A stretch of 64,000 nt of DNA. Origin: Alphaproteobacteria bacterium. GTDB lineage: Bacteria; Pseudomonadota; Alphaproteobacteria; MPNO01; UBA830. The stretch covers positions 5,696,001 to 5,760,000 of the forward strand of contig OZ251539.1 in assembly GCA_965243135.1 (NCBI GenBank), written 5' to 3'. Shown in pieces: positions 5,365-59,087 of the stretch; position 1 is the first letter of the stretch; each line of letters opens with the position of its first letter. The position numbers and the translations under genes were made by a program. The notes beneath the pieces are model-generated. The model was not told where the DNA came from. It was given only the letters and a program-made list of their open reading frames with translations, and did not search any database.

Positions 5365-6912
5365 TCAGACGGTCTCGAACCTGAAATCCACGATGTTGCG
5401 TTCTTCCCGGCCGAACTCGATCCCGATCAGGTGGACCGGCACGCCCGGACGCCGATATTTGTCCGCGTAGCCGCGTTCCCGTATCTGCGCCAGCGCCCGC
5501 CCTTCCGGCTTCCCGTCCGCGACCTTGAACTCGAACAGGTAGACGCCGCCGTCGTACAGAACCGTCAGGTCCGAGCGGCCGCGCGCCGTGCTCTCCTCCG
5601 CGCGGACGTCCATCCCCGCCGCCACGAAGTGCGAGTAGAGCACGCTCGCGTAGTGCGCCTCGTAGCCGGCCATGCCCGTGTTCGCGTACCACTCGTTCGG
5701 GATGCTCGCCAGCAACGTTCGGAACTGCCGCTCGAGGCCCGCGAAGTCGTTCGCGCGCATCAGGCGGCGCAGCTCCTGGCTCTCCGCCGCGACCGCGACG
5801 CCCGGTGCCATCGTCTGCAGCAGGAGCTCGTTCAGGCTGCGCTTCACCTCCTGGTTCGGGTAGTCCAGCCGATAGAGGAGCGCGTCCCCGTCCCGCTTCT
5901 CGTCGGCGATGGTCAGATAACCGGTCTGGAACAAAAACGTCTCGACGGGAATGCGGTCGACGTCGAGAGCCGACAGCAGCGTGGCGTTCGTGACCGCGCC
6001 CTCCAGGTCCGGCGCCGATACCCGGCGCCGCGCCAGAAGATCGGCGAGGAAGGTCGGCGTGCCGGTCTGGAACCAGTGCTCCTCGAACTCGCGCGTTTCG
6101 AAGAGAAGGAGAATGTCGAACGGGTTGTAGACTCTCTCCGGCCCGCGCCAATTGTAGCCGTTGTACCAGCGCCGGACCTTGTTCCGGTCCAGGCCCTCGA
6201 GTTCCGGGGCGAAGACCGCATCCAGTTCGTCGTCCGTGTAGCCGCAGATGGCGCCGAAACGCGGATCGAGGGTGATGTCGCGCAGGTTGTTCAGGCCCGA
6301 GAAAATGCCCGCCCGCGAGAATCTGCTCACCCCCGTCAGGAAAACGAAACGGAGCTGCCTGTCGCAGGCCTTGATCACCCCGTACAGGCTGCGCAGAAAG
6401 TCGCGGTTGGCCAGCGCCAGTTCCCGGTCGCCGAGCGCGTCCAGGATCGGCTTGTCGTATTCGTCGACCAGAACGACCACCTGCTGTCCGGTGCGCTCGT
6501 GCAGGGCCTCGATCAATTCCCAGAAACGAATCGACGCCTCGACGGATCCCGGTTCGAGGCCGGCGCGCCTCTCCGTCGCCGCCAGCTGCGCTTCCACGGT
6601 TACGCGAACTCCGTCCTGCGCGAGGAAATCGCCCCCTCTGCTGAAATCCAGCCGCACGACCGGATAGCGCGCCGACCAGTCCCACCCGTCGTGCACGGCG
6701 AAGCCCCGGAACAACTCCTCGCTTCCCTCGAACAACTCCTGCAGCGTGTCCACCAGCAGGCTCTTGCCGAACCGGCGCGGACGCGACAGGAAATTGTACT
6801 TGCCCCTCTCGACGAGACGGCGCACATGGTCCGTCTTGTCGACGTAGTAGCAGTCCATTTTCCGGATCTCCCGGAGGGAGGTCATCCCGGTCGGAAGCAT
6901 GCGTCTTTCCAT
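5365..6912 (-). CDS. AAA-ATPase-like + PD-(D/E)XK nuclease protein (PF09820/PF08011-type), paralog A
   Basis: YYVDKT, Walker A RPRRFGKS, Walker B VLVDEYD, FLTGVS, WYNGY, LFQTGYLT, GRSD..FEFK..AQIRERGY; start chosen from the promoter conserved in all paralogs. Confidence 0.88.
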   Translation of the reverse strand: MERRMLPTGMTSLREIRKMDCYYVDKTDHVRRLVERGKYNFLSRPRRFGKSLLVDTLQELFEGSEELFRGFAVHDGWDWSARYPVVRLDFSRGGDFLAQDGVRVTVEAQLAATERRAGLEPGSVEASIRFWELIEALHERTGQQVVVLVDEYDKPILDALGDRELALANRDFLRSLYGVIKACDRQLRFVFLTGVSRFSRAGIFSGLNNLRDITLDPRFGAICGYTDDELDAVFAPELEGLDRNKVRRWYNGYNWRGPERVYNPFDILLLFETREFEEHWFQTGTPTFLADLLARRRVSAPDLEGAVTNATLLSALDVDRIPVETFLFQTGYLTIADEKRDGDALLYRLDYPNQEVKRSLNELLLQTMAPGVAVAAESQELRRLMRANDFAGLERQFRTLLASIPNEWYANTGMAGYEAHYASVLYSHFVAAGMDVRAEESTARGRSDLTVLYDGGVYLFEFKVADGKPEGRALAQIRERGYADKYRRPGVPVHLIGIEFGREERNIVDFRFETV

Positions 6913-6918
6913 TCGACA

Positions 6919-6948
6919 AGAATAGGCCGCCGCAACGGAAACGGTCAA
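6919..6948 (-). promoter_or_regulatory. sigma70-type leaderless promoter of paralog A
   Basis: TTGACC-18nt-TATTCT-6nt-ATG; same architecture upstream of all five paralogs. Confidence 0.6.
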
Positions 6949-7093
6949 TTTATTTCAAACGCGTCACGCCATTTTTTGCCGGCTGCCGTCCGCTCGGCGC
7001 CCTGCGGACGGGCCGCACGGCGGGCAGGCCAAGAGTCGCGCGCCCCGACCTAACGTGCAGCCGCCTCGACGGCCGCGCGGATGGACATGCATG

Positions 7094-7133
7094 GTAAGCG
7101 TTCGGTTGTGGGGTGACGGGGAGGTAAGCGTTC
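7094..7133. mobile_element. Probable IS66-type terminal sequence remnant
   Basis: GTAAGCGTTCGG start (IS66 ends begin GTAA); 24 nt match the end at 31867-31890 at 21 of 24 positions; second GTAAGCGTTC at 7124. Confidence 0.4.
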
Positions 7134-7349
7134 AGGATCTCTCTCAGGTCGCTTTCGAGAGGACGACCCGTGGCGGCAGGAGCCGGGAGAAGAGGTGCGA
7201 CAGCCTCCCATTCCGCATTCGTAAGGTCGCTCGCCCCGTCTTTCGAGCATACTTCTCTCGGGTGGCCTTGTCCCAAGGCATGGCGGCCTCCACGGGTTAC
7301 GGTACCTTGTGGATACCACAAGGCCACCCGATAGTTTTCAATCAGGCTC
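7128..7349 (-). mobile_element. IS5-family (IS1031-like) left end and truncated transposase N-terminus
   Basis: GAGCCTGATTGAAAA end; MPWDKATREKYAR../SDLTNAEWEAVAPLLPAPAATGRP..DLREILNA, frameshifted and truncated. Confidence 0.7.
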
Positions 7350-7623
7350 TTACTGCGAGACGGACTTTGGTGGTTGCCGCGCTCGCCGGAGTCTTTGCCC
7401 TGCTGGTGCCGGAAAGGCGCGCAGCGGCGGCGTGAGTCGCCGCCGTGCGTCCGCCAGCCTTGCGCTGCCCGGCGGCAGCGCTCGCGCCCGCCCGACCGGT
7501 AAGCGCCTGAAGCGTAGCGGGAATGCGCCTCCGCGCTTTTCCCCGGCCGCCCGTGCCGCCGCGGAAACTGTCGGCTGCTTGTCGCGCGACGCGGCACGGG
7601 ACAGGCCTGCCGCCGCCGACTTC

Positions 7624-7652
7624 TTGACGGCTCCGGCGCAGCGGCCTAATCT
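7624..7652 (+). promoter_or_regulatory. sigma70-type leaderless promoter of paralog B
   Basis: TTGACG-17nt-TAATCT-6nt-ATG. Confidence 0.65.
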
Positions 7653-7658
7653 CTTCCG

Positions 7659-9188
7659 ATGGCGAAACGCATGCTTCCGATCGGCTTGACTTCTCTCCGG
7701 AAAATCCGGGGGATGGACTGCTACTACGTCGACAAGACGGACCATATCCGCCGCCTTGTCGAGGGTGGTCAATATTATTTTCTGTCGCGTCCGCGCCGGT
7801 TCGGCAAGACCCTGCTGGTGGATACGCTGCAGGAGCTGTTCGAAGGAAGCGAGGAGTTGTTTCGGGGCCTCGCCGTGCACGGCAAGTGGGACTGGTCGAT
7901 ACGTCATCCTGTCGTGCGGATCAGCTTCGGCGGGGGCAATTTCGACTCCCCGGACCTCGTTCGGGGAAACGTGGAAGACCAGTTGGAGGAAACGGAGCGG
8001 CTGGCCGGCCTCGAACCGGGGCCCGCCGGGGCGGCGGTCCGTTTCCGGCACCTGATAAGGACGCTGCACGAGCGCGCCGGGCAGCGGACGGTCGTTCTGG
8101 TGGACGAATACGACAAGCCGATTCTGGACGCGCTCGGCGACCGGGAACTGGCGGCGGCCAACCGCGACTTCCTGCGCGGCTTCTACGCGATGATCAAGGA
8201 CTGCGACAGGCATCTCCGTTTCGTTTTCCTGACGGGGGTGAGCAAGTTATCAGGCCTGTTCTCTGGCCTGAACAACCTGAACGACATCACGCTGGACGAA
8301 CGCTACGGCGACATCTGCGGCTGCACCGACGCGGAGCTGGACGCGGTCTTCGCCCCTGAACTCGAGGGCCTGGACCGGGACGAAATCCGCCGCTGGTACA
8401 ACGGCTACAACTGGCTCGGACCGGAGAGGGTCTACAACCCGTTCGGCCTCCTGCTGCTGTTCGACAAACGCAAGCTCGGCAACTACTGGTTCCATAGCGG
8501 CACGCCGACCTTCCTGGTCGAGACGCTGGCGCGCCGCAACCTGCCCACTCCCCGCCTGGACGGCATGATCGGCAGCGAGAGCCTGCTCTCGGCCTTCGAC
8601 GTGGACAGGATCTCGGTCGAGGCGCTTCTGTTCCAGACCGGCTACCTCACCATCGCCGGCGAAGAGGGCGGGCGCTACCGGCTAGGCTACCCGAACCTCG
8701 AGGTGCGCCAGAGCCTGGGCGAGGCCCTGCTGGAAGAACTGCTCCCGGCCGAGGCCCGCGAGGAGACGGAGAACCTGCGGCTGGGCGAATTGCTGGCGGC
8801 GAACGACTTCAAGCGTCTCGAAACCCTGTTCCGCGGCATTTTCGCCGCCATCCCGCACCAGTGGTACATGAACAGCCCGGTCGCGAAGTACGAAGCCCAT
8901 TACGCGAGCGTCATCCACAGCTGCTTCCTGATGGAGGGCGTCGAGCCGGTGGCCGAGGACAGCGGCAGCCGGGGGCGGGCCGACATGGCGATCCGCGCCG
9001 GCGGGCGCGTCTACCTGTTCGAGTTCAAGGTGGTGGAGCGCGGGCGGGAGGGGGTCGCGCTCGCGCAGCTGCGGGAGAAGGGCTATGCGGACAAGTACCG
9101 CCGTCTCGGACGTTCGGTCCACCTGATCGGGGTGGAGTTCAGCCGCGAGGAGCGCAACGTCGTCGGCTTCGATTGCGAGGCCGCCTGA
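7659..9188 (+). CDS. AAA-ATPase-like + PD-(D/E)XK nuclease protein, paralog B
   Basis: Same motif set (RPRRFGKT, DEYDKP, GRAD..FEFK..AQLREKGY). Confidence 0.88.
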   Translation: MAKRMLPIGLTSLRKIRGMDCYYVDKTDHIRRLVEGGQYYFLSRPRRFGKTLLVDTLQELFEGSEELFRGLAVHGKWDWSIRHPVVRISFGGGNFDSPDLVRGNVEDQLEETERLAGLEPGPAGAAVRFRHLIRTLHERAGQRTVVLVDEYDKPILDALGDRELAAANRDFLRGFYAMIKDCDRHLRFVFLTGVSKLSGLFSGLNNLNDITLDERYGDICGCTDAELDAVFAPELEGLDRDEIRRWYNGYNWLGPERVYNPFGLLLLFDKRKLGNYWFHSGTPTFLVETLARRNLPTPRLDGMIGSESLLSAFDVDRISVEALLFQTGYLTIAGEEGGRYRLGYPNLEVRQSLGEALLEELLPAEAREETENLRLGELLAANDFKRLETLFRGIFAAIPHQWYMNSPVAKYEAHYASVIHSCFLMEGVEPVAEDSGSRGRADMAIRAGGRVYLFEFKVVERGREGVALAQLREKGYADKYRRLGRSVHLIGVEFSREERNVVGFDCEAA

Positions 9189-9344
9189 ACGGCTTCCCGA
9201 CACGGCCGCCTCCGCGAAAGAACGCCGCCCGCGACGCGGGTTCTGCCTGCGGCGGCCGCCGGTTCCGCCGGTTCGTCGCACGGCTTGACGAGCCGCCCGG
9301 CCGAGGAAGCCGCGTCCGGCGGCGTCTCCCTGCAGGCGCTCCTG

Positions 9345-9900
9345 CCCTGTCATCACAAATCCTCTTCTGAACTGAGCAGGGGTGCGATCTCCCCGATTTC
9401 TTGATTTCCGCCCTCGTATGCCTGACGATAGCCGGCGAGACGGGAATAATCCTGCCAGATTTTCTGATGCCGGTCGGCGGGTTGCGGTTGCGGTAGCCGG
9501 CGGCGACGATCAGCAACGCCGCTTTGAGCGTCCCCGGCTTCGGCGTTCTCGGCAGTTTCGTCGCGTAGTCTTCGATAACGAGCAGTTCCATGTCCGAGAA
9601 CATGAGCTTGGCGGGCTGTCCGGCGTCTCGCGCGCCAGCAGGGCCATGATGCGCCAGACTGCGTTGATCACGCGCTCGAGACGGGCTGCGGTGCGGTGGC
9701 CCGTTTCTTCGACCTTGCATCCGGACTTCAGCGCGCGATGCCAGTCTGCGCCACCTCAGGGCATACCAACCCACGACCCGCATGGCGTCTTCGACAGACG
9801 AAACGGCGACCGCGGTGAGCAGGAATCACCGGTTTGGCGCCGCGGCTTCGGCTCGCTGAACGATCTGAACGGGAAGCGGCGCGGTTCCGCCCGACATTGG
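9345..9900 (-). mobile_element. IS4-family (IS50/Tn5-like) transposase remnant, C-terminal part
   Basis: FLLT..V..EDAMRVVGWYALRW, LKSGCKVEE in another frame, PAKLMFSDMELLVI..TLKAALLIVAAGYRNRNPP; multiple frameshifts. Confidence 0.65.
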
Positions 9901-10029
9901 CGGCAGCAGGACGGTCCGGTAAGCGTCGCCCGGTCGAACGCGGGAGCTGCCGACAGCAATTTTTTGCGGAAGCAACTACCGAAACGCTCGAACGGGACCA
10001 TCGAACTCGTCCGCTGGCGGTTCCCGGCT

Positions 10030-11574
10030 TCAGGCGGTCTCGAACTCGAAGCCGACGATGTTGCGCTCTTCCCGTCCGAACTCCATGCCGATCAACCGGA
10101 TCGGCACGCCGAGATGCCGGTACTTGTCCGCGTAGCCGCGCTCCCGCATCTGCGCCAGCGCTTGGCCTTCGTGCTGTTGGTCCACGACCTTGAACTCGTA
10201 CAGATGCACGCATCCCGGACTCAGCACAGCCATGTCCAGTCGCCCGCGGGCGGTCGCTTCCTCGACCCGAACGTCCAGACCCGCCGCCGCGAAGTGCGAG
10301 TAGACGAGGGCCGCCCAATAGCCCTCGTAGAGGTCGTTCTTCCGGTGCCAGTCGTGAGGAACGCTCGCGAAGAACGCCTCGAACAGCGCTCTCACCCTCT
10401 CCGGATCGTCCTCCGCCGTCAGCCTGGCCAGTTCCGCCTGCCGCGTCGCCTCCTGCCCCGTCGTCGGCGCCATGGCGCGCAACAGCCTCTTGTTCAGGCT
10501 GAGCTTCACCTCGTAGTTCGGGTAGTCCAGCCGGTAGAGGCTCCCGCCGTCTGCGGCCTCCTCGCCGACAATGGTCAAGTAGCCGGTCTGGAACAAAAGC
10601 GCTTCGGTCGAGATGTCGTCGACGTCGAAGGCCGACAGCAACTCGTCGTCCGCGACAAGCCCCTCAAGGGCCGGCGTCGCGACCCGGCGGCGCGATAGAA
10701 GGTCGACGAGGAAGGTCGGCGTGCCGCTCTGGAACCAGTGCGCCTCGAACTTGCGCGTTTCGAAGAGAAGGAGGACGTCGAACGGGTTGTAGACCTTCTC
10801 CGCGCCGCACCAGTTGTAGCCATTGTACCAGCGCCGGACTTCTTCCCGGTCCAGGCCCTCGATCTCCGGGGCGAAGACCGTATCCAGTTCTTCGTCCGTG
10901 TAACCGCAAAGGGTACCGAAACGCGGATCGAGGGTGATGTCGCGCAGGTTGTTCAGGCCCGAGAACACGCCCGCTTGCGAGAACTTGCTCACCCCCGTCA
11001 GGAAAACGAAACGCAGCTGTCTGTCGCAAGCCTTGATCACCCCGTACAAGCTGCGCAGGAAGTCGCGGTTGGCCCGCGCCAGTTCCCGGTCGCCGAGCGC
11101 GTCCAGGATCGGCTTGTCGTATTCGTCCACCAGAACGACCGCCTGCCGCCCGGTGCGCTCGTGCAGGGCCTCGATCAATTCCCAGAAACGAACCGACGCC
11201 TCGACGGAGCCCGGTTCGAGGCCGGCGCGCCTCTCCGCCGCCGCTAGCTGCGCTTCCACGGTTACGCGAACCCCGTCCGGGGCGCGGAAATCGCCCCCTC
11301 TGCTGAAATCCAGCCGCACGACCGGATGGTGCGCCGACCAGTCCCACTTGCCGTGCACGGCGAGGCCCCGGAACAACTCCTCGCTTCCCTCGAACAACTC
11401 CTGCAGCGTGTCCACCAGCAAGCTCTTGCCGAACCGGCGCGGACGCGACAGGAAATTGTACTTGCCCCTCTCGACGAGGCGGCGCGCATGCTCCGTCTTG
11501 TCGACGTAGTAGCAGTCCATTTTCCGGATCTCCCGGAGGGAGGTCATACCGGTCGGAAGCATGCGTTTCGTCAT
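10030..11574 (-). CDS. AAA-ATPase-like + PD-(D/E)XK nuclease protein, paralog C
   Basis: Same motif set; C-terminal half nearly identical to paralog D. Confidence 0.88.
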   Translation of the reverse strand: MTKRMLPTGMTSLREIRKMDCYYVDKTEHARRLVERGKYNFLSRPRRFGKSLLVDTLQELFEGSEELFRGLAVHGKWDWSAHHPVVRLDFSRGGDFRAPDGVRVTVEAQLAAAERRAGLEPGSVEASVRFWELIEALHERTGRQAVVLVDEYDKPILDALGDRELARANRDFLRSLYGVIKACDRQLRFVFLTGVSKFSQAGVFSGLNNLRDITLDPRFGTLCGYTDEELDTVFAPEIEGLDREEVRRWYNGYNWCGAEKVYNPFDVLLLFETRKFEAHWFQSGTPTFLVDLLSRRRVATPALEGLVADDELLSAFDVDDISTEALLFQTGYLTIVGEEAADGGSLYRLDYPNYEVKLSLNKRLLRAMAPTTGQEATRQAELARLTAEDDPERVRALFEAFFASVPHDWHRKNDLYEGYWAALVYSHFAAAGLDVRVEEATARGRLDMAVLSPGCVHLYEFKVVDQQHEGQALAQMRERGYADKYRHLGVPIRLIGMEFGREERNIVGFEFETA

Positions 11575-11580
11575 CCTAAA

Positions 11581-11609
11581 AGGGTAGGCCGCCGTACCGG
11601 AGCGGTCAA
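11581..11609 (-). promoter_or_regulatory. sigma70-type leaderless promoter of paralog C
   Basis: TTGACC-17nt-TACCCT-6nt-ATG. Confidence 0.6.
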
Positions 11610-12113
11610 GGAGCGGTGAACGCGAGACGTTCGCGCTGCGCCATGTTTTGGTCGGCTGCCGTCGGTCCGGCGCGGGCGACTCGGGCAACTTGTCTCCCCA
11701 TGAAAAGAATGTTCCCCTGCCGCCTCTCGTGGCATTCAGCCAGGATGCTCACGACAACCCTCGGGGGGCCGGATTTTTTTGCGCGGAGACGCGCCGCCCA
11801 TTGTCGCAGCGCGGCGTCCGGGCGGACGGCTTGGGACGGAGTCTGCGGAACCTGCCGCCCCGGAAAATCCGCGGTCACCGGGGACATCCGCCGCCCTTGA
11901 AAGCCGTCGGGATTTCAGGACGCCGGGAACGGCGACTGAGCGTCCGTAGAGAGGAGCCGCCGGGCCGGAATTCCCGCCCGCCTCCTCGGCGGCGCTTCCC
12001 GCCAAGTTCCCGGAGGGCAAGGCGGCGGAATAAAAGACGACAGCCTTTCGCCGAGGCGGCTGTCGAAACGCTCGAACGGGACCATCGAACTCGTCCGCTG
12101 GCGGTTCCCGGCT

Positions 12114-13661
12114 TCAGGCGGTCTCGAACTCGAAGCCGACGATGTTGCGCTCTTCCCGTCCGAACTCCATGCCGATCAACCGGATCGGCACGCCGAGATG
12201 CCGGTACTTGTCTGCGTAGCCGCGCTCCCGCATCTGCGCCAGCGCTTGGCCTTCGTGCTGTTGGTCCACGACCTTGAACTCGTACAGATGCACGCATCCC
12301 GGACTCAGCACAGCCATGTCCAGTCGCCCGCGGGCGGTCGCTTCCTCGACCCGAACGTCCAGACCCGCCGCCGCGAAGTGCGAGTAGACGAGGGCCGCCC
12401 AATAGCCCTCGTAATTTGCGAGGTCGTTCTTCCGGTGCCAGTCGTGAGGAACGCTCGCGAAGAACGCCTCGAACAGCGTCCTCACCTTCTCCGGATCGTC
12501 CTCCGCCGTCAGCCTGGCCAGCTCCGCCTGCCGCGTCGCCTCCTGCCCCTTTACCGGCGACATGGCGCGCAGCAGCCTCTTGTTCAGGCTGAGTTTCACC
12601 TCGTAGTTCGGGTAACCCAGCCGATAGAGGCTGCCGCCGCCGACGGCTTCCTCGCCGACGATGGTCAGGTAGCCGGTCTGGAACAAAAGCGCTTCGGTCG
12701 AGATGTCGTCGACGTCGAAAGTCGAGAGCAGTTCGTCGTCCGCGAACATGCCCTCCAGGGCCGGCGGCGCGACCTGGCGGCGCGACAGAAGGTCGACGAG
12801 GAAGGTCGGCGTGCCGCTCCTGAACCAGTGCGCCTCGAACTGGCGACGCCGGAACAGCAGCAGGACATCGAACGGGTTGTAGACCCTGTCCGCGCCGCGC
12901 CAGTTGTAGCCGTTGTACCAGCGGCGTATTTCGTCCCGGTCCAGGCCCTCGAGTTCAAGAGCGAAGACTGCGTCCAGCTCCGAGTCCGTGTAGCCGCAAA
13001 TGTTCGAGAACTCCGGCTCCAGCGTGATGTCGATCAGGTTGTTCAGGCCCGAGAAAATGCCCGCCTGCGAGAACTTGCTCACGCCCGTCAGGAAAACGAA
13101 ACGGAGATGCCTGTCGCTGTCCTTGATCATCGCGTAGAAGCCGCGCAGGAAGTCGCGGTTGGCACGCGCCAGTTCCCGGTCGCCGAGCGCGTCCAGGATC
13201 GGCTTGTCGTATTCGTCGACCAGAACGACCACTCGCTGCCCGGCGCGCTCGTGCAGCGTCCTTATCAGGCGCCGGAAACGGACCGCCGCCCCGGCGGGGC
13301 CCGGTTCGAGGCCGGCCAGCCGCTCCGTTTCCTCCAACTGGTCTTCCACGTTTCCCCGAACGAGGTCCGGAGAGTCGAAATTGCCCCCGCCGAAGCTGAT
13401 CCGCACGACGGGATGGCGCGTCGACCAGTTCCACTTGCCGTGTATGGCGAGGCCCCGGAACAGCTCCTCGCTTCCCTCGAACAGCTCCTGCAGCGTGTCC
13501 ACCAGCAGGGTCTTGCCGAACCGGCGCGGACGCGACAGGAAATAGAGCTTGCCCTCCTCGACGAGGCGGTGCACATGGTCCGTCTTGTCGACGTAGTAGC
13601 AGTCCAGATCCCGGATCTCCCGGAGGGAGGTCATGCCGATCGGCAGCATGCGCTTGGTCAT
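12114..13661 (-). CDS. AAA-ATPase-like + PD-(D/E)XK nuclease protein, paralog D
   Basis: Same motif set; N-terminal half like B, C-terminal half like C. Confidence 0.88.
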   Translation of the reverse strand: MTKRMLPIGMTSLREIRDLDCYYVDKTDHVHRLVEEGKLYFLSRPRRFGKTLLVDTLQELFEGSEELFRGLAIHGKWNWSTRHPVVRISFGGGNFDSPDLVRGNVEDQLEETERLAGLEPGPAGAAVRFRRLIRTLHERAGQRVVVLVDEYDKPILDALGDRELARANRDFLRGFYAMIKDSDRHLRFVFLTGVSKFSQAGIFSGLNNLIDITLEPEFSNICGYTDSELDAVFALELEGLDRDEIRRWYNGYNWRGADRVYNPFDVLLLFRRRQFEAHWFRSGTPTFLVDLLSRRQVAPPALEGMFADDELLSTFDVDDISTEALLFQTGYLTIVGEEAVGGGSLYRLGYPNYEVKLSLNKRLLRAMSPVKGQEATRQAELARLTAEDDPEKVRTLFEAFFASVPHDWHRKNDLANYEGYWAALVYSHFAAAGLDVRVEEATARGRLDMAVLSPGCVHLYEFKVVDQQHEGQALAQMRERGYADKYRHLGVPIRLIGMEFGREERNIVGFEFETA

Positions 13662-13667
13662 TCGAAA

Positions 13668-13696
13668 AGAGTAGGCCGCCGCGCCGTCACCGTCAA
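13668..13696 (-). promoter_or_regulatory. sigma70-type leaderless promoter of paralog D
   Basis: TTGACG-17nt-TACTCT-6nt-ATG. Confidence 0.6.
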
Positions 13697-13868
13697 TGAG
13701 GAGGCGATTGGAGGCGTTTGCGCTGCGCCATGTTTTGCTGCCGTCAGCACAGCACTGCGCGGACCGCTCCGTCCACCCGCGGCGGCGCCATTCGCATTGA
13801 TCTTCGAATGCGCTATAATGCATCGCCCAAAGAGGCATTCTGTCGTCTGCATTCCAAGAGGAACATCG

Positions 13869-15263
13869 ATGAAGAAATACGAACGCATGGCGGGCCGCGC
13901 GCTTCGCCGAACTGTCGTGGTGGGCGGCGTTCTTCTCGCCGCGGCCTTCATGGCGGCTGATGCGCATGCCGCCCTCGACGCCGAATCGAAGTTCGTTCTG
14001 AACAGTTTTTCGTTCCTCATATGGGGTGCGCTGGTCATGTGGATGTGCGCGGGCTTCACCATGCTCGAGTCCGGCACCGTGCGGACCAAGAACGCTTCGG
14101 TCATCTGCCTGAAGAATATCGGGCTCTATTCCATTGCCGGCCTCGCCTTCTATCTTCTCGGCTACAACATCATGTATACCGATGTCGGAAGCTGGATCGG
14201 TTCCGTCAAGCTGTTATACGGCACGTCCGCCGATGAAATCGCGCTGCTGTCGGACAAGGCGGACGCGCTGGCCGGGGTTCTCGAGAACGGCTACTCCAAG
14301 ATGTCGGACTGGTTCTTCCAGATGGTGTTCGTGGCGACCACCGCGTCCATCGTGTCCGGCGCGCTTGCCGAGCGCGTCAAGCTTTGGTCGTTTTTCCTGT
14401 TCATCGCGCTTCTGACGGCGATCATCTATCCGATCGTCGGCTCATGGACCTGGGGCGGCGGCTGGCTCAGCGACTACGGTTTTCAGGATTTCGCGGGATC
14501 GACGATCGTTCACTCGACCGGCGGCTGGGCGGCGCTGGCCGGCATCATGGTCGTCGGCGCGAGGACCGGCAAGTTCAGGGCCGACGGCAGCGTAAAGAGC
14601 ACTCCGCCGTCGAACGTGCCGGCCGTAACTCTGGGCGTATTCATCCTCTGGCTGGGCTGGTTCGGTTTCAACGGAGGTTCGCAGCTGGCTTTGGGCGGCG
14701 CGGCCGATGCGGTGGCGATCAGCAACATTTTGGCGAACACCAATCTTGCGGCGGCGGCCGGCGTCATGGTGGCGCTCGCCCTGTCCAGGCCGGTGTTCGG
14801 GCGAGTCGATCTGCTCGCCGCGCTGAACGGCGCCATAGCCGGGCTGGTTTCCATCACCGCGGGTCCCGACATCGTCGAGCATTACTGGGCCGTCATCATC
14901 GGCGCCGTCGGCGGCGCCATCTGCGTCTTGGGCATGAAATTGCTCGAAACGTTGAAGCTCGACGACGTGGTCGGCGCAATTCCCGCCCATCTGTTCGCCG
15001 GCGCATGGGGAACGCTCGCCGTCTGCATTGCCGCCGGCGGCGACATCGTCGTGCAGATCGTCGGCGTGTTGGCCGTGGGCGTCTTCGTGTTCGCCTGTTC
15101 CATAGTTCTCTGGCTGATCATCGACAAGGTTTTCGGAGCGCGCGTTTCGCTGAAGGTCGAGGAGTTGGGTCAGGATACGGCGGAGCTCGGAATCGAGGCG
15201 TATCCCGAATTCGTGCTGATGCCCGACATGGACGAGGCGGACGATTTCTCGGCCCAAAAGTGA
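13869..15263 (+). CDS. amtB: Ammonium transporter (Amt family)
   Basis: GFTMLESG..KN, FFQMVF..IVSGALAER, DFAGSTIVHSTGG, LWLGWFGFNGGS, DDVVGAIPAH; GAGGA RBS; TATAAT at 13814-13819. Confidence 0.95.
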   Translation: MKKYERMAGRALRRTVVVGGVLLAAAFMAADAHAALDAESKFVLNSFSFLIWGALVMWMCAGFTMLESGTVRTKNASVICLKNIGLYSIAGLAFYLLGYNIMYTDVGSWIGSVKLLYGTSADEIALLSDKADALAGVLENGYSKMSDWFFQMVFVATTASIVSGALAERVKLWSFFLFIALLTAIIYPIVGSWTWGGGWLSDYGFQDFAGSTIVHSTGGWAALAGIMVVGARTGKFRADGSVKSTPPSNVPAVTLGVFILWLGWFGFNGGSQLALGGAADAVAISNILANTNLAAAAGVMVALALSRPVFGRVDLLAALNGAIAGLVSITAGPDIVEHYWAVIIGAVGGAICVLGMKLLETLKLDDVVGAIPAHLFAGAWGTLAVCIAAGGDIVVQIVGVLAVGVFVFACSIVLWLIIDKVFGARVSLKVEELGQDTAELGIEAYPEFVLMPDMDEADDFSAQK

Positions 15264-31890: not shown

Positions 31891-32254
31891 AGTCAAGGAG
31901 ACCCTTGCGCTGTTCATAACGTCCTGAAACAGCTTTCAGGGGCGCGAATTTTCTTTTCCTCAGGTACGGAAGACTGCGAACTTTCCGCGCTGAGACCGCC
32001 GTTTTCGCAGGTTCCGCTCCAAACACCGTTTCGCGACCGCATGTCCGCGTCACGGCTCGGTTCGTCCGAGTTCGCCGCGCGGCGCCGGAGCGACCGGGCA
32101 GTCCATTTTCGTTCCGCGGTTGCCCGCCTGCGCGACCCTTACGGGGTCGCCGGCCGGGCGGCGAGCCGACAAAAAAACCGCACAGCGCGAATGCCTCCGA
32201 GTCTTGATTTGCAAGCCCATAGAGCTTACGCTCCTGACAGAACGGGAGACAGCA

Positions 32255-32542
32255 GTGCGTCAAGCCAGAACCGAACGCGTGCAGATGCGCATTGACCCTG
32301 CGGCAAAGCGCAGGTTGGAGCGCGCTGCGGCGTTGTCGAACACGACAGTATCGGCCTTCGTTGCGAGCCATGCGCTTGAAGCCGCCGATCGCATGATTCG
32401 CGAATGTGAGCGGATCGTCATCAGCGATCGGGACTGGGACTTGTTCATCGATACTCTCGCCGACCCTCCCGAACCGAATGCCGCGCTGCGCAAAGCATGG
32501 GCGACGCATAGACGCATGGTCTCGAAGACCGCCAGCGTGTGA
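32255..32542 (+). CDS. DUF1778 (TacA-like) antitoxin
   Basis: RVQMRIDPAAKRRLERAAAL..VSAFV..ISDRDWDLFIDTLADPPEPNAAL; GGAG RBS, GTG start. Confidence 0.85.
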   Translation: MRQARTERVQMRIDPAAKRRLERAAALSNTTVSAFVASHALEAADRMIRECERIVISDRDWDLFIDTLADPPEPNAALRKAWATHRRMVSKTASV

Positions 32543-41008: not shown

Positions 41009-41414
41009 GCGTCTGCGCCCGCCCCCGTAGCGGCGAAGCTGCTGACGCGCCCTCGCGGTCCTTGCGGATCTGTTGGCGGACAGCCGGAGCGATCCGCGGG
41101 GCGCCGGCCGGGCGCCGAGCCGACAAAAAACGGCGCAGCGCAAACGCCTCTCGCACTTGGCCATTCCGTGATGAAAGGCGCCGGCCATGCGGTAACGGCG
41201 TCAAGAGTGGGCGCGTTCCGACGCGTCGCTGATAACTCCCGCCGTTACCGAAGCCTTCCGGCCGGCGTGCGTCGCCGGTCGACGAAGACGACATCTCCCG
41301 TCGAAACCGCTTGAGCGTTGAATCCCCTCGCCGAAAATTCGGAGCCGCGCGGTGCGACGAAGCCCGTTCCGGGGAAGCCGTTGGTACAATGACTCTTCTG
41401 GAGGAAACGGCGAA

Positions 41415-42638
41415 ATGAACGGAATGACATCGCAAGATGCCGCAACGCCGCGCATCGAATGCCTGAAGGTGCGGAACTTCCGGGCCTTGCGGGACGTCGA
41501 GATCGCGAAACTGATGCCGTTGACAGTGCTCCTCGGCCCCAACGGCAGCGGCAAATCCACGGTGTTCGACGCGCTCGCCTTCCTCGCGGAGTGCTTTTCG
41601 TCCGGCCTGCGGCGCGCCTGGGATCGGCGCGGGCGGGCCAAGGAGCTCAGGACCTGCGACGCCGACGGGGCGGTGACGATAGAGATCAAATACCGTGAAC
41701 GACGAAAAACTCCGCTGATCACTTATCACCTGTCCATTGACGAGTTGGCCGGCGCGCCAGTAGTCGTCCACGAGTGGCTGGGCTGGAAACGAACGGGCTT
41801 CGAAGCGCCTTTTCGTTTCCTTGAGTACCGCCACGGCAGAGGCCAAGCCGCGAGCGGCGAAGTGCCGGACGCGGAAGACGAGCGGATCGAGACGCCGTTA
41901 AAATCGCCCGACCTGCTGGCGGTCAACGCGCTCGGGCAGTTCCAGGATCATCCGCGCGCGGCGGCGCTGCGCGATTTCATCATGGGTTGGCACGTTTCCT
42001 GCCTTTCGGCCGACAGCGCGCGTGCACAGCCGGAGGCGGGTCCGCAGGAGCGTCTGAGCACGAGCGGCGACAACCTCGCCAACGTCATCCAGCATCTAAG
42101 CGAACGGCACCCAAAGCGTCTCGACCTCATTTTCCAAACGCTGCGCCGGCGCGTGCCGCGCATCGAGCGCGTGCTGGCCGACGCCATGCCGGACGGCCGG
42201 CTGCTGCTGCAAATCAAGGACGCGCCGTTCAGCCACCCGGTTCTGGGGCGCTTCGCTTCCGATGGCACGCTAAAGATGCTGGCCTATCTGACGTTGCTGC
42301 ATGATCCGGAACCACCGCCCTTCATCGGCATCGAGGAGCCGGAAAACTTTCTGCATCCGCGCCTGCTCCACGAACTGGCGGAGGAATGCGCCGCGGCCGG
42401 CGAGCGCACGCAGATGCTCGTCGCCACCCATTCGCCATTCTTCCTGAATGCGCTGAAGCCCAAACAGGTTCGCGTCCTGTGGCGGGACGAAAAGGGCCAC
42501 GCGCGGTCGCGGCGAGTCGCCGACCTCGATGGCGTGCCCGATTTCATGGAAGCCGGCGCACTGCTCGGCGATCTCTGGATGGAAGGCTATTTCGGCGTTG
42601 GCGATCAGTTGACCCGGCATGGCGGAGAACGCCGGTGA
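41415..42638 (+). CDS. ABC-type ATPase (AAA_21/COG4637-like)
   Basis: [39 protein letters not shown]. Confidence 0.88.
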
Positions 42639-49706: not shown

Positions 49707-50137
49707 CAAGGCGAATCGATTGCTATTGATTTGAGCCTTCCAGGCTGAAAAATGCCGGATTTGAGGTCCGAGTGGCGTGACGATAGAAGTTCCTGCTGGA
49801 GTTCTGCAAGCGCCGCGCACCGCATCGGGGGTCGAAAGTCTGGAGCCGCAAGGGTTTAGAGCCGTCGCCGCGCTTGAGCGCGACGACCGGACCACGAGCG
49901 CATTCCACATCTCCTTCCGAGCGCGACAGGCAACAAAGCGGAGGGTGCCGGGCAAGCGGCCGGCAACGAACTTGCGCGATCCGCAGAACGGACAGTCGGG
50001 GTCGTGTTCGAAAAGATGGTGCAACCGCTATATTTTACGGCTCGCTGGCGCGTGATGGTTTGTCCTTTAGTATTACGTCGTGCATTCTCCAATCTGAACC
50101 TGGATTTGGATCCGGGACAAAGGGCTCGAATTCATCC

Positions 50138-52105
50138 ATGGGCGCGATTCTTCCGATAAACCTCGACAACCTCCTCCACTGTCGCAGTGTGGAGTCGGAA
50201 CGGGTGGAGTTCGAAGGATCGTGGGATCCGCGGACGACAGGGCCCCAAGTGCTCAGGACGATCTGCGCGTTCGCCAATGACTATCACAACCTGAACGGCG
50301 GCTACGTCGTCATCGGCGTCGAGGAGCAGGCCGGACGTGCGGTCTTGCCTCCTTCCGGTCTGTCCGCCGGGGAGATCGAGACCGCGCGGAAATGGGTCCG
50401 CGGCAACTGCAACCGGCTCGACCCTCCCTATCACCCCATTTTGTCGCCCGAGACCGTCGGAGATCGACTTATCCTGGTAGTGTGGGCCCCGGCGAGCGAG
50501 ATGAGGCCCCATCGTGCGCGCGGGATCGGCGGCGAGCGATTCTGGGTGCGTCTCGGCTCCGAGACCGTCGACGCCGAACGGCGCGGCGGTCTGCTTCGCG
50601 GCGTCGTCGAGCAGACCGCGCGCGTGCCTTGGGACGATCGCCGGGCGCCCGATGCTCAAGTCGAAGATCTGCGCGGAGCAAAGGTCCGCGAATACCTGCG
50701 AGATGTACGCAGCGGGCTCCTCGACGAACCGAGCGAAGAGAACGTTTATCGGCGCATGCGCATAACGATGAAAGTTAATGATCGCGAAGTCCCCCGGAAT
50801 GCGGGCCTCCTGTTCTTTTCGAAAGATCCCGCGGAGTGGTTTCGAGGGGCGAAGATCGAAGTCGTGCAGTGCGCCGCGGATCGGGCCGGGGATGTGCAGG
50901 AGGAACGGATCTTCGGTGGCGCGCTCGTGGATCAGCTTCGCGACTGCTTGAATTATCTTGAAAACTTTTCGGCGTTTCATCTGCAAAAGCAGCGGCATCG
51001 GAGCCAGGTTCGCGGTTGGGTCAGCTATCCGCTTCCGGCCCTCCGCGAAACCCTCGTCAACGCGGTCTATCACCGCGGCTACGATGTCGACCAGCCCGAA
51101 CCTACCAAAGTCTATCTCTATCCGGACCGCATTGAGGTCATCAGCTACCCGGGACCGGTTGCGGGAATCGAAGCCCGACACCTGCTTCCCGACGCGGAAG
51201 TTCGGGCCGCGCCTGCCCGCAATCGCCGCATCGGAGAATTTCTGAAGGAGCTGGGGCTTGCGGAGGGACGACTCACCGGACTGCGGAAGGTGTTTCAGGC
51301 GATGGAAACCAATGGCTCTCCGTCGCCCCGATTCGATTTCGACGAGCAGCGGACTTACTTCCAGGCCACGTTGCCGGCCCATCCGGAATATGGGGCGCTG
51401 TCGGCGCTGCGGGACGCGGCCCATCTAAAGGCATTGGGAGATCAAAGAGAAGCTCTCCGTCGCGTTGAGTCCGCGTGGACGTCCAACCGAAGTTCGGCGA
51501 TCCTCGCGTCCGAGATGGTGCGGGCGTATGCGGAAAGCGGCGAGTTGGAGCGTGCCGAGGAAGTCCTGAAAACCTTCGAGGCGCAAGGGCCGGAGAGCGC
51601 GGTTTCCTGCGTCGCGAATGCGATGATCGAGGCGCTCGCGGACGCGGGCGACGAAAGCGGAGCTCGGCGGTTGCTCAGGAAGAGCCGTCCCGTATTGTTC
51701 GGCCGGGACGCTATAGACGCTGCTATCCTGGCCCGGCGCGTCAAAGACTCCCGCGCCGCGCACCGGTATTTCGAGCGCGCCGACGATGCCGTATATGCCG
51801 ATTCTCGGGCGCTGCTTGAGTTCGCGCAGACCAAGCTCTGGCTGGCGAACGAGGCCTACCGGCAACGTCGGCGCGATTCGAATCGACGGTTTCTCATGGA
51901 GGCTCGAGTGCTGCTGGAGCGCGCTATCCAGCTCGATGCATCGCCTGCGCGCCATGCCTGGGCGTGGCGCGAACTGGCGCGTGCGCTCAACTGGCTACGG
52001 GCTCCGGTCGGAGAGGTCGAAGGAGCCTATCGCGCGGCGATCGAGCTATTGCCGGACGAACGGAGATTTCGCAGAGAGATGGAGAGGGTGCTGGTTGCCA
52101 GATAG
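50138..52105 (+). CDS. AlbA_2 (Schlafen-like) + HATPase_c_4 protein with a helical/TPR-like C-terminus
   Basis: VESERVEF, ICAFAND..GGYVVIGV, YPLPALRETLVNAVYHR.Y, RNRRIGEFLKELGLAEGR.TG. Confidence 0.8.
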   Translation: MGAILPINLDNLLHCRSVESERVEFEGSWDPRTTGPQVLRTICAFANDYHNLNGGYVVIGVEEQAGRAVLPPSGLSAGEIETARKWVRGNCNRLDPPYHPILSPETVGDRLILVVWAPASEMRPHRARGIGGERFWVRLGSETVDAERRGGLLRGVVEQTARVPWDDRRAPDAQVEDLRGAKVREYLRDVRSGLLDEPSEENVYRRMRITMKVNDREVPRNAGLLFFSKDPAEWFRGAKIEVVQCAADRAGDVQEERIFGGALVDQLRDCLNYLENFSAFHLQKQRHRSQVRGWVSYPLPALRETLVNAVYHRGYDVDQPEPTKVYLYPDRIEVISYPGPVAGIEARHLLPDAEVRAAPARNRRIGEFLKELGLAEGRLTGLRKVFQAMETNGSPSPRFDFDEQRTYFQATLPAHPEYGALSALRDAAHLKALGDQREALRRVESAWTSNRSSAILASEMVRAYAESGELERAEEVLKTFEAQGPESAVSCVANAMIEALADAGDESGARRLLRKSRPVLFGRDAIDAAILARRVKDSRAAHRYFERADDAVYADSRALLEFAQTKLWLANEAYRQRRRDSNRRFLMEARVLLERAIQLDASPARHAWAWRELARALNWLRAPVGEVEGAYRAAIELLPDERRFRREMERVLVAR

Positions 52106-52290: not shown

Positions 52291-52398
52291 GAACGCGGGC
52301 CGCGCCGAGATAACCGTTCCGCGGTCGGGCGTCGCGGCGTGAAGACGGACGGGGCGGCCCCTCAGCGTCACGCTCCCGAATTCTCGAACGACGCCGCG

Positions 52399-54059: not shown

Positions 54060-54175
54060 TCCGCTTCTCCTCCTTGCCGTTTCAGGCGGCGAGCATAGCC
54101 GGGCAGGCCGTTTCCGAAAAGCGCCGGCGCGTCGCCGTTCGCTGCGGGCCGGCGCTCGCCGCCGCGTCTCGGCCG

Positions 54176-55962: not shown

Positions 55963-55970
55963 GGCCGCCG

Positions 55971-56999: not shown

Positions 57000-57003
57000 C
57001 GGT

Positions 57004-57365
57004 ATTCCTCCCGTTTTGTCGCGGATCAGCGAGAGAGCGCCGGCCGGGCCTGTACGCTGTTCCGCAAGCCTGCTTGTCCAAGCCGTTAGACAGTCTGCCA
57101 TAATTCGGCGGGACGGCATAGCCGGACAGCGCCGCCCCTTTCGCCGCCGCGCGCGCGGCCGTCAGATGACGCCGACCCTTGATGCGCCTCGCAGAACTTT
57201 CGCCGCCGCGTGCGGGGCCGTCGGCCAGCGCGATGGCTTTCCGCGGTCGGCCAGTCCTGCCCGCTGTCCGGCATCTTCTCGACGGCTGGCGTTCCGTAGC
57301 CGACCGCCCACGTTGTCAGGGGTCCAGGTCCGTGCGGAGTGACGGAGGGGAAACAGGTCATTCCC
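57004..57365 (+). repeat. Diverged direct repeat copy 1 (copy 2 = 59462-59563 joined to 62410-62660 across the IS insertions)
   Basis: CGCGGATCAGCGAGAGAGCGCCGGCCGGGCCTGT..GCAAGCCTGCTTGTCCAAGCCGTTAG, then AGTCTGCCA.AATTCGGCGGG..GGCATCTTCTCGAC.GCTGGCGTTCCGTAGCCGAC..GGAGGGGAAACAGG. Confidence 0.8.
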
Positions 57366-57510
57366 GAACCGGCCGGCGGCCTCGGCCATGAGGCCCATGC
57401 CGACGCCGGCGGCGCTGCCCGTGCGCCTCCTTCTCCTGCCGGTCGAGCTGGCGGATGGCGTCGCCGAGCTGGGCGCGGACGCGCAGGACGAGGCGTTAAT
57501 GACGCTCTCC

Positions 57511-57539
57511 TTGACGGCTTCGGGGCGGCGGCCTACCCT
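57511..57539 (+). promoter_or_regulatory. sigma70-type leaderless promoter of paralog E
   Basis: TTGACG-17nt-TACCCT-6nt-ATG. Confidence 0.6.
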
Positions 57540-57545
57540 TTTCGG

Positions 57546-59087
57546 ATGACGAGACGCATGCTTCCGACCGGCATGACCTCCCTCCGGGAGATCCGGGGAG
57601 AGATGGATTGTTACTACGTCGACAAGACGGACCATGTGCGCCGCCTCGTCGAGAGGGGCAAGTACTATTTCCTGTCGCGTCCGCGCCGGTTCGGCAAGAC
57701 CCTCCTGGTGGACACGCTGCAGGAGCTGTTCGAGGGAAGCGAGGAGCTGTTCCGGGGCCTCGCCGTGCACGACGGGTGGGACTGGTCGGCGCGCCATCCG
57801 GTCGTGCGGCTGGATTTCAGCAGAGGGGGCGATTTCCGCGCCCAGGACGGGGTTCGCGTAGCCGTGGAAAGGCAGCTGGCGAGGGCGGAAAGGCGCGCCG
57901 GCCTCGAACCGTGCCTCGTCGAAGCGTCGGTTCGTTTCTGGGAATTGATCGAGGCCCTGCACGAGCGCACCGGGCAGCGCGTGGTCGTGCTGGTGGACGA
58001 ATACGACAAGCCGATTCTGGACGCGCTCGACGACCGGGAACTGGCGCGGGCCAACCGCGACTTCCTGCGCAGCCTGTACGGGGTGATCAAGGCCTGCGAC
58101 AGGCAACTGCGTTTCGTTTTTCTGACGGGAGTTAGCAAGTTCTCGCAGGCGGGCCTGTTCTCGGGCCTGAACAACCTGCGCGACATCACCCTCGATCCGC
58201 GGTTCGGCACCATCTGCGGCTACACGGACGCGGAACTGGATGCGGTCTTCGCTCCGGAACTCGAGGGCCTGGACCGGAACGAGGTCCGCCGCTGGTACAA
58301 CGGCTACAACTGGCGCGGGCCGGAAAGGGTCTACAGCCCGTTCGACATCCTCCTTCTCTTCGAAACGCGCGAGTTCGGCAACCACTGGTTCCTGAGCGGC
58401 ACGCCGACCTTCCTGGTCGAGACGCTGGCGCGCCGCAACCTGCCCACTCCCCGCCTGGACGGCATGATCAGCAGCGAAAACCTGCTCTCGACCTTCGACG
58501 TCGACAGGATCTCGGTCGAGGCGCTTCTGTTTCAGACCGGCTACCTCACCATCGCGGGCGAGGAGAACGGGCGCTACCGGCTGGACTACCCGAACCTTGA
58601 GGTGCGCCAAAGCCTGGGCGAAGCCCTGCTGGGAGAACTGCTCCCGGCCGAGGCCCGCGAGGAGACGGAGAACCTGCGGCTGGGCGAACTGCTGGAGGCG
58701 AACGACTTCAAGCGCATCGAGACCCTGTTCCGCGGCGTCTTCGCCGCCATCCCGCACCAGTGGTACGCGACCAGCCCGGTTGCGAAGTACGAGGCCCACT
58801 ACGCGAGCGTCATCCACAGCTGCTTCCTGATGGAGGGCCTCGAGCCGGTCGCGGAGGACAGCGGCAGCCGGGGGCGCGCCGACATGGCGATCCGCGTCGG
58901 CGGACGCGTCTACCTGTTCGAGTTCAAGGTGGTGGAGCGCGGGCGGGAGGGGACCGCGCTCGCGCAGTTGCGGGAGAAGGGCTATGCGGACAAGTACCGC
59001 CATCTCGGTCGTTCGGTGCACCTGATCGGGGTGGAGTTCAGCCGCGAGGAGCGCAACGTCGTCGGCTTCGATTGCGAGGCTGCCTGA
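57546..59087 (+). CDS. AAA-ATPase-like + PD-(D/E)XK nuclease protein, paralog E
   Basis: Same motif set; N-half like A/C, C-half nearly identical to B. Confidence 0.88.
   Translation: MTRRMLPTGMTSLREIRGEMDCYYVDKTDHVRRLVERGKYYFLSRPRRFGKTLLVDTLQELFEGSEELFRGLAVHDGWDWSARHPVVRLDFSRGGDFRAQDGVRVAVERQLARAERRAGLEPCLVEASVRFWELIEALHERTGQRVVVLVDEYDKPILDALDDRELARANRDFLRSLYGVIKACDRQLRFVFLTGVSKFSQAGLFSGLNNLRDITLDPRFGTICGYTDAELDAVFAPELEGLDRNEVRRWYNGYNWRGPERVYSPFDILLLFETREFGNHWFLSGTPTFLVETLARRNLPTPRLDGMISSENLLSTFDVDRISVEALLFQTGYLTIAGEENGRYRLDYPNLEVRQSLGEALLGELLPAEAREETENLRLGELLEANDFKRIETLFRGVFAAIPHQWYATSPVAKYEAHYASVIHSCFLMEGLEPVAEDSGSRGRADMAIRVGGRVYLFEFKVVERGREGTALAQLREKGYADKYRHLGRSVHLIGVEFSREERNVVGFDCEAA

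Follow-up and report, generated by a model that had tools for sequence, protein, structure and literature searches.

How do five paralogous genes come to carry a few N-terminal and C-terminal sequence types in different combinations, and is a dedicated system needed to bring such reassortment about? The question is raised by positions 5,696,001 to 5,760,000 of contig OZ251539.1 (GenBank assembly GCA_965243135.1; hereafter the window, the whole stretch of 64,000 nucleotides that was analysed), which belongs to the genome of a sponge-associated alphaproteobacterium, a single contig of 6,103,318 bp with 65% GC from a metagenome-type assembly (G000). A sequence-only reading of the window had described five open reading frames (ORFs), referred to here as copies A to E, as NTPase-nuclease paralogs with two N-terminal alleles (N1 and N2) and three C-terminal alleles (X, Y and Z) joined at a common GTPTFL motif, and had proposed that recombination there reassorts sensor and nuclease modules in the manner of type I HsdS subunits. 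Our analysis leads to another explanation, which we regard as likely: the five genes would belong to one large family of stand-alone DUF1703 genes whose N-terminal parts have been scrambled by gene conversion, and the apparent switch would be a passive boundary set by the limits of homology.

Five mosaic genes in a large DUF1703 family

All five ORFs are present at exactly the coordinates first given for them, and the assignment as NTPase-nuclease paralogs holds, as their products are DUF1703 proteins with both Pfam domains above gathering scores: each matches PF09820 (AAA-ATPase_like; E 1e-57 to 1e-60, 194-205 bits, gathering cut-off 26.1) and PF08011 (PDDEXK_9; E 1e-15 to 7e-19, 55.6-68.2 bits, cut-off 25.5). 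The true starts are conserved ATG codons behind a conserved promoter, and the longer ORFs of the earlier description represent upstream read-through. The GC content at third and second codon positions (GC3 0.84-0.87, GC2 0.41-0.45 in the sense frames of A-E) indicates that the sense frames are coding; the long antisense ORFs overlapping A-E are by-products of high GC.

Protein alignment places the N1/N2 and X/Y/Z peptide signatures in the copies to which they had been assigned, and the mosaic combination of N and C parts is confirmed at the DNA level by pairwise identity in 60-nt windows (positions, here and below, are alignment nucleotides). Identity between B and D is 91-100% over nt 241-560 and drops to 46-58% over nt 1051-1320. 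In the stretch from nt 841 onwards, B resembles E (88-98%) and C resembles D (83-100%), and over nt 1-840 copies A, C and E share 83-98% mutual identity. The N1 and N2 signatures mark only one variable block between Walker A and Walker B (codons 81-140, 'nv'), and not a whole N-terminal module: D has N2 in this block, yet is not B-like at nt 601-660 or 781-840.

The window genes are a small sample of a much larger family. A profile built from the five window proteins and searched against the stop-to-stop ORFs of the genome matched 229 ORFs, which were joined into 184 family loci spanning 231,705 bp, or 3.80% of the genome. These comprise 96 intact close copies (93 single ORFs and three that were initially joined with neighbouring fragments), two divergent intact members, approximately 22 split copies and 64 remnants. 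That all the ORFs stay open, as first noted, is true of the five window genes, but genome-wide only 96 of the 184 loci are intact by the profile criterion. Identity within the family is 47-100%; alignments, trees and motif counts refer to 92 of the intact copies, the other four having been left out because the start-motif pattern was unmatched. The family was found in four of the 30 relatives searched (23, 9 and 1 matches in three genomes of the same genus and 9 in one of the same order), which marks the expansion as lineage-specific.

Landscape of exchange and the N|C boundary

Recombination among the paralogs is strongly supported. Over 768 informative sites, the pairwise homoplasy index (PHI) of the alignment is 0.685, compared with a mean of 0.935 under permutation (z -53), and not one of 1000 permutations reached so low a value. 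At a 10% cut, the last 660 nt divide into two singletons and three major classes, with class 1 (49 copies) corresponding to Y, class 2 (32) to X and class 3 (9) to Z. Separate trees of the N and C parts, which the sequence-only reading had called for, were built, and congruence between them is rejected. The C classes are monophyletic on the C tree (49/49, 32/32 and 9/10) and scattered over the whole N tree; C class changes 22 times on the tree of nt 1-840, and an approximately unbiased (AU) test on the N-part data rejects a class 2 clade (delta log-likelihood 667, p 1.3e-8). The PHI and AU results bear out the earlier argument that duplication alone cannot give the observed combinations.

The extent of exchange along the gene was resolved by Mantel correlation of distances in adjacent 150-nt windows, with random interleaved halves of the same 300 nt as controls. 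Over nt 1-870 the adjacent-window r is 0.05-0.6 against 0.56-0.92 for the interleaved controls, which indicates a patchwork with several boundaries, while over nt 900-1530 adjacent windows (0.87-0.98) and controls (0.94-0.98) agree, as expected of one clonal block. The first ~290 codons are thus a patchwork and the last ~220 codons a clonal block in three major classes. The nv block alone has 16 classes genome-wide (10% cut), and 32 combinations of nv and C class exist. The same landscape is seen in the 16 copies of a second genome of the genus, G004 (N1|N2 r 0.21, control 0.78; N|C r 0.36, control 0.97; C1|C2 r 0.98, control 0.99); the seven copies of a third, G030, are too few to inform on it.

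The flanks of the genes show which part of each copy has been replaced. The C class, which lies ~0.9 kb or more downstream, is the same in 98% of the 243 pairs of copies that have an upstream flank class in common (background 41%). The four N blocks that directly adjoin the upstream flank are common to 40%, 26%, 53% and 33% of the same pairs (backgrounds 44%, 11%, 50% and 14%). Likewise, five nv classes, each of which is also seen with other C classes, occur among 21 copies with both flanks and the C module in common. As the flanks go with the C module rather than with the N blocks next to them, the exchanges are internal conversion patches and not N/C crossovers; flanks and C module form the backbone of a copy, whose N-terminal coding sequence has been replaced patch by patch. 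Neither this linkage nor the several internal boundaries of the N part accord with a dedicated switch for shuffling a sensor against a nuclease module.

The main N|C boundary does lie at GTPTFL, as proposed: 622 of 1453 pairwise change-points (43%) fall within nt 811-870, at the codons for WFxSGTPTFL. It is, however, not the single boundary in the gene, nor does the evidence support a dedicated switch there. Most of these change-points (573 of the 622) come from same-class pairs in which the right side is more similar, and therefore show where the clonal block begins. Exact runs of at least 20 nt cover 10-85% of between-class pairs over nt 1-780; their coverage nearly equals that within classes up to ~nt 630, lags from nt 631, is 22% at nt 841-870 and is 0-2% over most of nt 871-1350. 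In this identity-run landscape WFxSGTPTFL is the last island where a between-class conversion tract can be resolved, and the position of the boundary is predicted by the landscape alone. The 17-mer that encodes part of this motif is indeed exact at the five places first reported, where 0.02 occurrences are expected by chance, but it is not specific to the five genes: it occurs 107 times genome-wide, is found in 71 of the 92 intact copies and lies in a 30-nt stretch that is less well conserved than four others. It is an ordinary conserved motif.

The exchanges are old. For each block of the five window copies the best donor is 92-98% identical, the mosaic blocks thus differing by 2-8%, and most best donors lie elsewhere in the genome, up to megabases away. 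The codon 81-140 block of D is 96-98% identical to class 1 and class 2 copies, and the N-part blocks of E are nearest (93-98%) to class 2 copies elsewhere in the genome. Exact tracts between classes have a median length of 52 nt and a maximum of 195 nt, and reach at least 100 nt in 63 of 2478 pairs. Donors of this divergence and tracts this short point to historical rather than recent exchange, and nothing in the sequence indicates a currently switching system. On the trees, the N parts of G000 form one clade against G004 and G030 (support 0.956), whereas the C parts of G000 do not exclude G004 (weak support, 0.725), and C-part identity within G000 falls to 47%, compared with a maximum of 54% to G004. 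These relations are consistent with older C lineages and an N part that has been homogenised within the genome.

A simple course of events would produce this pattern. Each gene would encode an ORC/Cdc6-like AAA+ ATPase, a helical linker and a PD-(D/E)XK nuclease, expressed from its own promoter, and each copy would have a clonal backbone made up of its flanks and last ~220 codons, belonging to one of three diverged lineages (X, Y or Z). The first ~290 codons would be alike enough in all copies for ordinary homologous recombination to copy short patches between any paralogs, and this non-reciprocal gene conversion, which we infer to be of the RecA type, would scramble and partly homogenise the ATPase part across lineages. 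Between lineages, conversion would stop at the WFxSGTPTFL codons because these hold the last shared identity island before class-specific sequence; the apparent 'switch' and the N x C combinations would follow from this passive limit.

Gene products, gene unit and setting

The features of the window genes, together with other annotated genes of the window, are listed in Table 1.

Table 1. Positions of the DUF1703 copies, their parts and other genes in the window (window coordinates).
Feature	Position	Strand	Remarks
Copy A, DUF1703 gene, 515 aa	5365-6912	-	C-module class 2 (X); Pfam, conserved ATG
Copy B, 509 aa	7659-9188	+	C-module class 1 (Y); typical of the 21-copy subfamily sharing both flanks
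Copy C, 514 aa	10030-11574	-	C-module class 3 (Z)
Copy D, 515 aa	12114-13661	-	Class 3 (Z) backbone
Copy E, 513 aa	57546-59087	+	Class 1 (Y) C module
Variable block nv	B 7899-8078 (+); A 6490-6672, C 11152-11334, D 13242-13421, E 57789-57971		Codons 81-140
Junction zone	B 8463-8522 (+); A 6040-6099, C 10702-10761, D 12792-12851, E 58362-58421		Alignment nt 811-870, WFxSGTPTFL
17-mer within junction zone of B	8499-8515	+	
Clonal C-terminal module	B 8523-9185 (+); A 5368-6039, C 10033-10701, D 12117-12791, E 58422-59084		Helical region and PD-(D/E)XK core; Mantel r 0.9-0.98 within the block
Promoter of A	6913-6948	-	TTGACC, 18 nt, TATTCT; ends 6 nt before ATG; also found by consensus scan
Same promoter element, other copies	B 7624-7658 (+), C 11575-11609 (-), D 13662-13696 (-), E 57511-57545 (+)		
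TacA1-like antitoxin	32120-32542	+	Accessory/defence-type
AAA_21 (AbiEii-type) ATPase	41352-42638	+	Accessory/defence-type
Schlafen AlbA_2 + HATPase_c_4 protein	49874-52105	+	Accessory/defence-type
IS-type HTH protein	61476-61949	+	Accessory/defence-type
ORF, 1850 aa	19040-24592	-	No Pfam match at E 1e-5 or better

The encoded proteins retain the residues expected of a functional ATPase and nuclease. The variant Walker A motif SRPRRFGK[ST], the Walker B motif DEYD and the sensor-1 motif FLTGV[ST] are each present in 92 of 92 intact copies, as is the nuclease EFK motif, and the nuclease Asp (GRxD) is present in 90 of 92. Within classes, the ratio of non-synonymous to synonymous change (omega) is 0.17-0.68 in every block, indicative of purifying selection, and positive selection was not found at this level. 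Synonymous divergence (dS) is 0.08-0.12 in the conserved motifs, compared with 0.4-0.7 elsewhere. An AlphaFold2 model of B, calculated from a 34-sequence alignment, has a mean confidence score (pLDDT) of 65.9; the ATPase (residues 10-195) and nuclease (residues 350-509) are modelled with confidence, and residues 245-349, which include GTPTFL, score below 50. The best Foldseek matches of this model are the AAA+ proteins ORC4, Orc1 and Cdc6 (E 7e-5 to 1e-3, template modelling (TM) score 0.23-0.30), with further weak matches to CidB nuclease domains, Apaf-1, an archaeal Walker ATPase (2qen), BrxC and Avs4. Weak as they are, these matches agree with the description by Knizewski et al. (2007; PMC1913061). 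No sequence match to solved structures in the PDB was obtained at E 0.01 or better, and none in NCBIfam; the PADLOC 2.0 defence models gave no match (E 0.01 or better) to copies A, B and C, and a Pfam scan of the five copies found no secretion-related domain. We predict the proteins to be ATP-dependent (ATP-switched) DNA nucleases.

The unit common to all copies is compact: the shared homology begins ~39-46 nt before the ATG and ends 0-10 nt after the stop codon. Of the 92 copies, 87 have a sigma-70-type promoter (TTGA[CT], 17-18 nt, TAnnnT) whose end lies 6 nt ahead of the ATG; ATG is the start codon in all 92, and a Shine-Dalgarno-like motif was seen in none. A promoter this close to the start and the lack of such a motif suggest that the transcripts are leaderless, which we infer for the mRNAs of the whole family. 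No excess of terminal inverted repeats was detected when the 70 nt upstream of the 92 copies were compared with the reverse complement of the 70 nt downstream (mean score 16.0, versus 14.6 for shuffled sequence and 17.1 in direct orientation), and on this ground a transposon carrying the gene was rejected; a match spotted by hand between the -35 region and the sequence after the stop codon also failed the inverted-repeat test. Consistent unit ends were not found, the flanks of subfamilies reaching beyond the shared homology, and a conserved downstream ORF of the partner or immunity type was absent from the 22 copies inspected from three C classes.

The window copies sit among metabolic genes (ABC and TRAP transporters, an acyl-CoA dehydrogenase and an ammonium transporter). 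Three ORFs scanned outside the family genes in 5.2-15.3 kb contained no recombinase domain, the sole match being the ammonium transporter. A search for the empty site in four genomes of the same genus yielded no comparable pre-insertion site: the counterparts of the flanking genes (acyl-CoA dehydrogenase, 40-62% identical; ammonium transporter, 60-81%) lie at unlinked places. The long ORF at the foot of Table 1 passed only a looser codon-position GC filter and may be non-coding read-through in high-GC DNA.

Elsewhere in the genome, two adjacent intact members (G000:C1:1565053-1566642 and 1567193-1568791) are just 42-44% identical to copy C and have profile scores of ~454, against ~1000 for other copies; this pair is a separate, older subfamily outside the recombining pool. 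Split copies (e.g. G000:C1:1276535-1278296, 1332653-1334331, 3649948-3652378 and 3965828-3967573) break at recurrent profile positions, namely ~114 (at least six loci), 185-190 (at least five) and 458-459 (at least four), presumably as the result either of the duplication of broken copies, of frameshifts spread by conversion or of slippage-prone sites. In addition, a group II intron (RF02003, 75-77 bits; RF00029, 51 bits) follows the FQTGYL codons in some members: five copies whose N part is readable carry it and, judged by position, so do three more family remnants. It is found at G000:C1:1150690-1151560 (L001 1331-2172), and further sites lie near 1934103, 2665272-2668845, 2889589, 3618458, 4119198, 1914071 and 1924199. 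Both ORF-less (~0.8 kb) and longer forms exist, with ~31 blastn matches genome-wide; in the window, run X10 shows a loose end at position 8649. The multi-copy gene appears to serve the intron as a repeated homing site, and intron-bearing copies may still be functional after splicing.

Parts of window positions 5000-14500 are present in runs (X1-X14) of five studies, and runs labelled sponge metagenome come from several studies. In runs of four studies the unique spacers of the A-D cluster are found again at 98-100% identity, their pieces differing mostly in 0 and at most in 5 letters each. The closest protein relatives have 55-64% amino acid identity and occur in several copies per chromosome in metagenome-assembled genomes (MAGs) of at least seven differently named phyla or classes, with the labels Gammaproteobacteria, Pseudomonadales, Latescibacterota, Binatia, Vicinamibacterales, Poribacteria, Gemmatimonadota and Alphaproteobacteria. 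Relatives in MAGs so diverse, together with the presence of the locus in sponge-metagenome runs, point to horizontal spread within one habitat; the sequences suggest that this DUF1703 subfamily is shared horizontally across it, and that the family matters in the sponge habitat.

Alternative explanations and known systems

Several points weigh against a wholly passive, conversion-based account. The change-point and class analyses count pairs of related copies and not independent events. Change-points peak more sharply at nt 811-870 than in the adjoining bins, and small identity islands within the C part are hardly used, although they are present in 19% (nt 961-990) and 44% (nt 1351-1380) of between-class pairs; the homology limit may therefore be reinforced by a site preference or by selection against chimeric C modules. 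With all pairs pooled, omega exceeds 1 in the 10-codon windows 301-310, 351-360 and 371-380, and some diversifying selection on the linker or helical region is possible. The account also leaves the spread of copies to more than 100 scattered places unexplained. Finally, public contigs (four runs from four studies) do not bridge the junctions: the fragments are at most 541 nt long and break inside repeats, and the sole joint reported (6516 to 13274) has just 25-26 nt on one side and is probably another paralog.

This last point, and the metagenome-type origin of the single-contig assembly, are what could speak for an artefact of assembly or polishing in which reads were mis-assigned among ~100 near-identical repeats. 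We find such an artefact scarcely credible, given that the mosaic blocks differ by 2-8% from their best donors instead of being identical to them, that all 96 intact copies keep their frames and motifs, that each copy has its own flanks and that the spacers between A and D recur at 98-100% identity in the runs of four studies. The same landscape is moreover present in the separately assembled G004, and recombination has been published for paralogs of this kind in Cardinium (PMC6387759). Programmed or selected diversification is a more substantial rival. The family would then form a repertoire for defence; conserved motifs would be the sites of favoured or catalysed recombination, by which the ATPase, as a 'sensor', is reassorted with nuclease or specificity heads, as in HsdS. 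The sharpness of the boundary at WFxSGTPTFL (622/1453 change-points), the decoupling of N and C parts also in G004, the maintenance of three discrete C classes and the retention of promoters and catalytic motifs under purifying selection in intact copies would all be accommodated, as would the defence-type genes in the window (AAA_21, Schlafen AlbA_2) and the weak fold resemblance (TM 0.2-0.3) to ORC/Cdc6, to STAND-type switches and to defence ATPases of the BrxC/Avs4 type. We nevertheless judge this reading unlikely: the N part has many boundaries and not one, the linkage of flank and C module reflects conversion patches rather than module swaps, and the identity landscape alone predicts the boundary. 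The exchanges are also old: donors are 92-98% identical, and between classes no exact tract reaches 200 nt. The copies have ordinary metabolic genes as neighbours, none of the ORFs scanned around A-D carries a recombinase domain, and the PADLOC models gave no match at E 0.01 or better. A role in defence, like the analogy with HsdS, is conjecture.

Conversion might also be self-inflicted, the nucleases cutting the family's conserved N-terminal DNA so that repair from a paralog drives conversion, and possibly spread, in a homing-like manner. What favours this is indirect, namely the extraordinary copy number (184 loci, 3.8% of the genome), the close relatives (55-64% amino acid identity) in MAGs of at least seven differently named taxa, a universally shared unit of just promoter and ORF, and the very low dS in the conserved motifs; the last, however, is equally expected from homology-dependent conversion. 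As terminal inverted repeats are lacking, no defined element ends or target duplications were seen and the exchanges are old and not ongoing, we hold this to be very unlikely. A further conjecture, and in our view a rather unlikely one, is that the asymmetry between the two parts is functional: an interchangeable ATPase engine, homogenised across ~100 genes by the cell or by the family through its own nucleases, and at least three preserved nuclease or specificity heads would form a combinatorial repertoire of single-gene defence or conflict systems, shared horizontally among unrelated sponge symbionts and even providing a homing ground for the group II intron. Scrambling by ordinary gene conversion up to a homology-limited boundary is the explanation that we favour over all of these, and it implies that limits on homologous recombination can passively give rise to a 'combinatorial module' pattern.

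Comparison with known systems places the family more exactly. The HsdS shufflons of phase-variable type I restriction-modification systems consist of adjacent, oppositely oriented paralogs with conserved motifs flanking variable modules. The window genes share this arrangement, but have no hsdM or hsdR partner and no recombinase domain nearby among the ORFs scanned, and their exchanges are genome-wide, old and patchy instead of local reciprocal inversions; reciprocal exchange between neighbouring inverted copies was not found in the window, the donors being mostly distant and the patches non-reciprocal. Polymorphic toxin loci (Rhs/CdiA-CT) have a conserved demarcation motif before a variable C-terminal module, and the likeness extends to a conserved N part, a sharp boundary motif and discrete alternative C-terminal modules. 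In contrast to these loci, the present family has no conserved downstream immunity-like ORF (22 copies inspected), no secretion-related domain was found, and all C modules are of one nuclease fold with intact catalytic residues. Another parallel is the concerted evolution of bacterial multigene families, in which non-reciprocal patches limited by stretches of identity homogenise the conserved parts within a genome. The monophyly of the N part of G000 against G004 and G030 is of this kind; the difference is that here only part of the gene is homogenised, and three diverged C-terminal lineages persist side by side.

The window genes are plain DUF1703 members. The family (PF09820 and PF08011) was defined by Knizewski et al. 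(2007; PMC1913061), who list a variant Walker A RPRRFGK[ST], a Walker B DEYD and a sensor-1 FLTG.VS as its motifs. The family architecture has four parts, an AAA+ alpha/beta domain, a helical lid, a helical region and a restriction-endonuclease-like fold. The window genes have the same domain pair and motifs, probably the same helical region and the same C-terminal PD-(D/E)XK core with Asp and E-x-K, and no structural difference is apparent. DUF1703 is a large and widespread ATPase-nuclease family. With 184 loci in ~3.8% of its DNA, the present genome stands at an extreme, which makes it a natural data set on which parts of the protein exchange freely and which stay discrete types. Our literature search found no paper on predicted AAA-ATPase or PDDEXK genes of this kind in sponge symbionts.

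The nearest precedent is Cardinium hertigii cCpun, in which 25 DUF1703 paralogs with intragenic recombination by RDP4 and PHI were described (Siozios et al., 2019; PMC6387759). The core phenomenon, a recombining DUF1703 expansion, is thus already in print, and both cases share a lineage-specific expansion, patchy among relatives, with intragenic recombination of paralogs that stops short of full homogenisation. The Cardinium paralogs are there given as 25 in number, with a mean amino acid identity of 39%, in a reduced insect endosymbiont, and predicted to be secreted; the sponge-associated genome has 96 intact and ~88 other loci of 47-100% identity in 6.1 Mb, a scrambled N part and three clonal C classes are resolved in it, and the flank linkage shows conversion. 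To the Cardinium case the present family adds the scale of the expansion, a resolved landscape of exchange, evidence for conversion from flank linkage, an account of the 'switch' in terms of identity runs, a putatively leaderless promoter and a group II intron.

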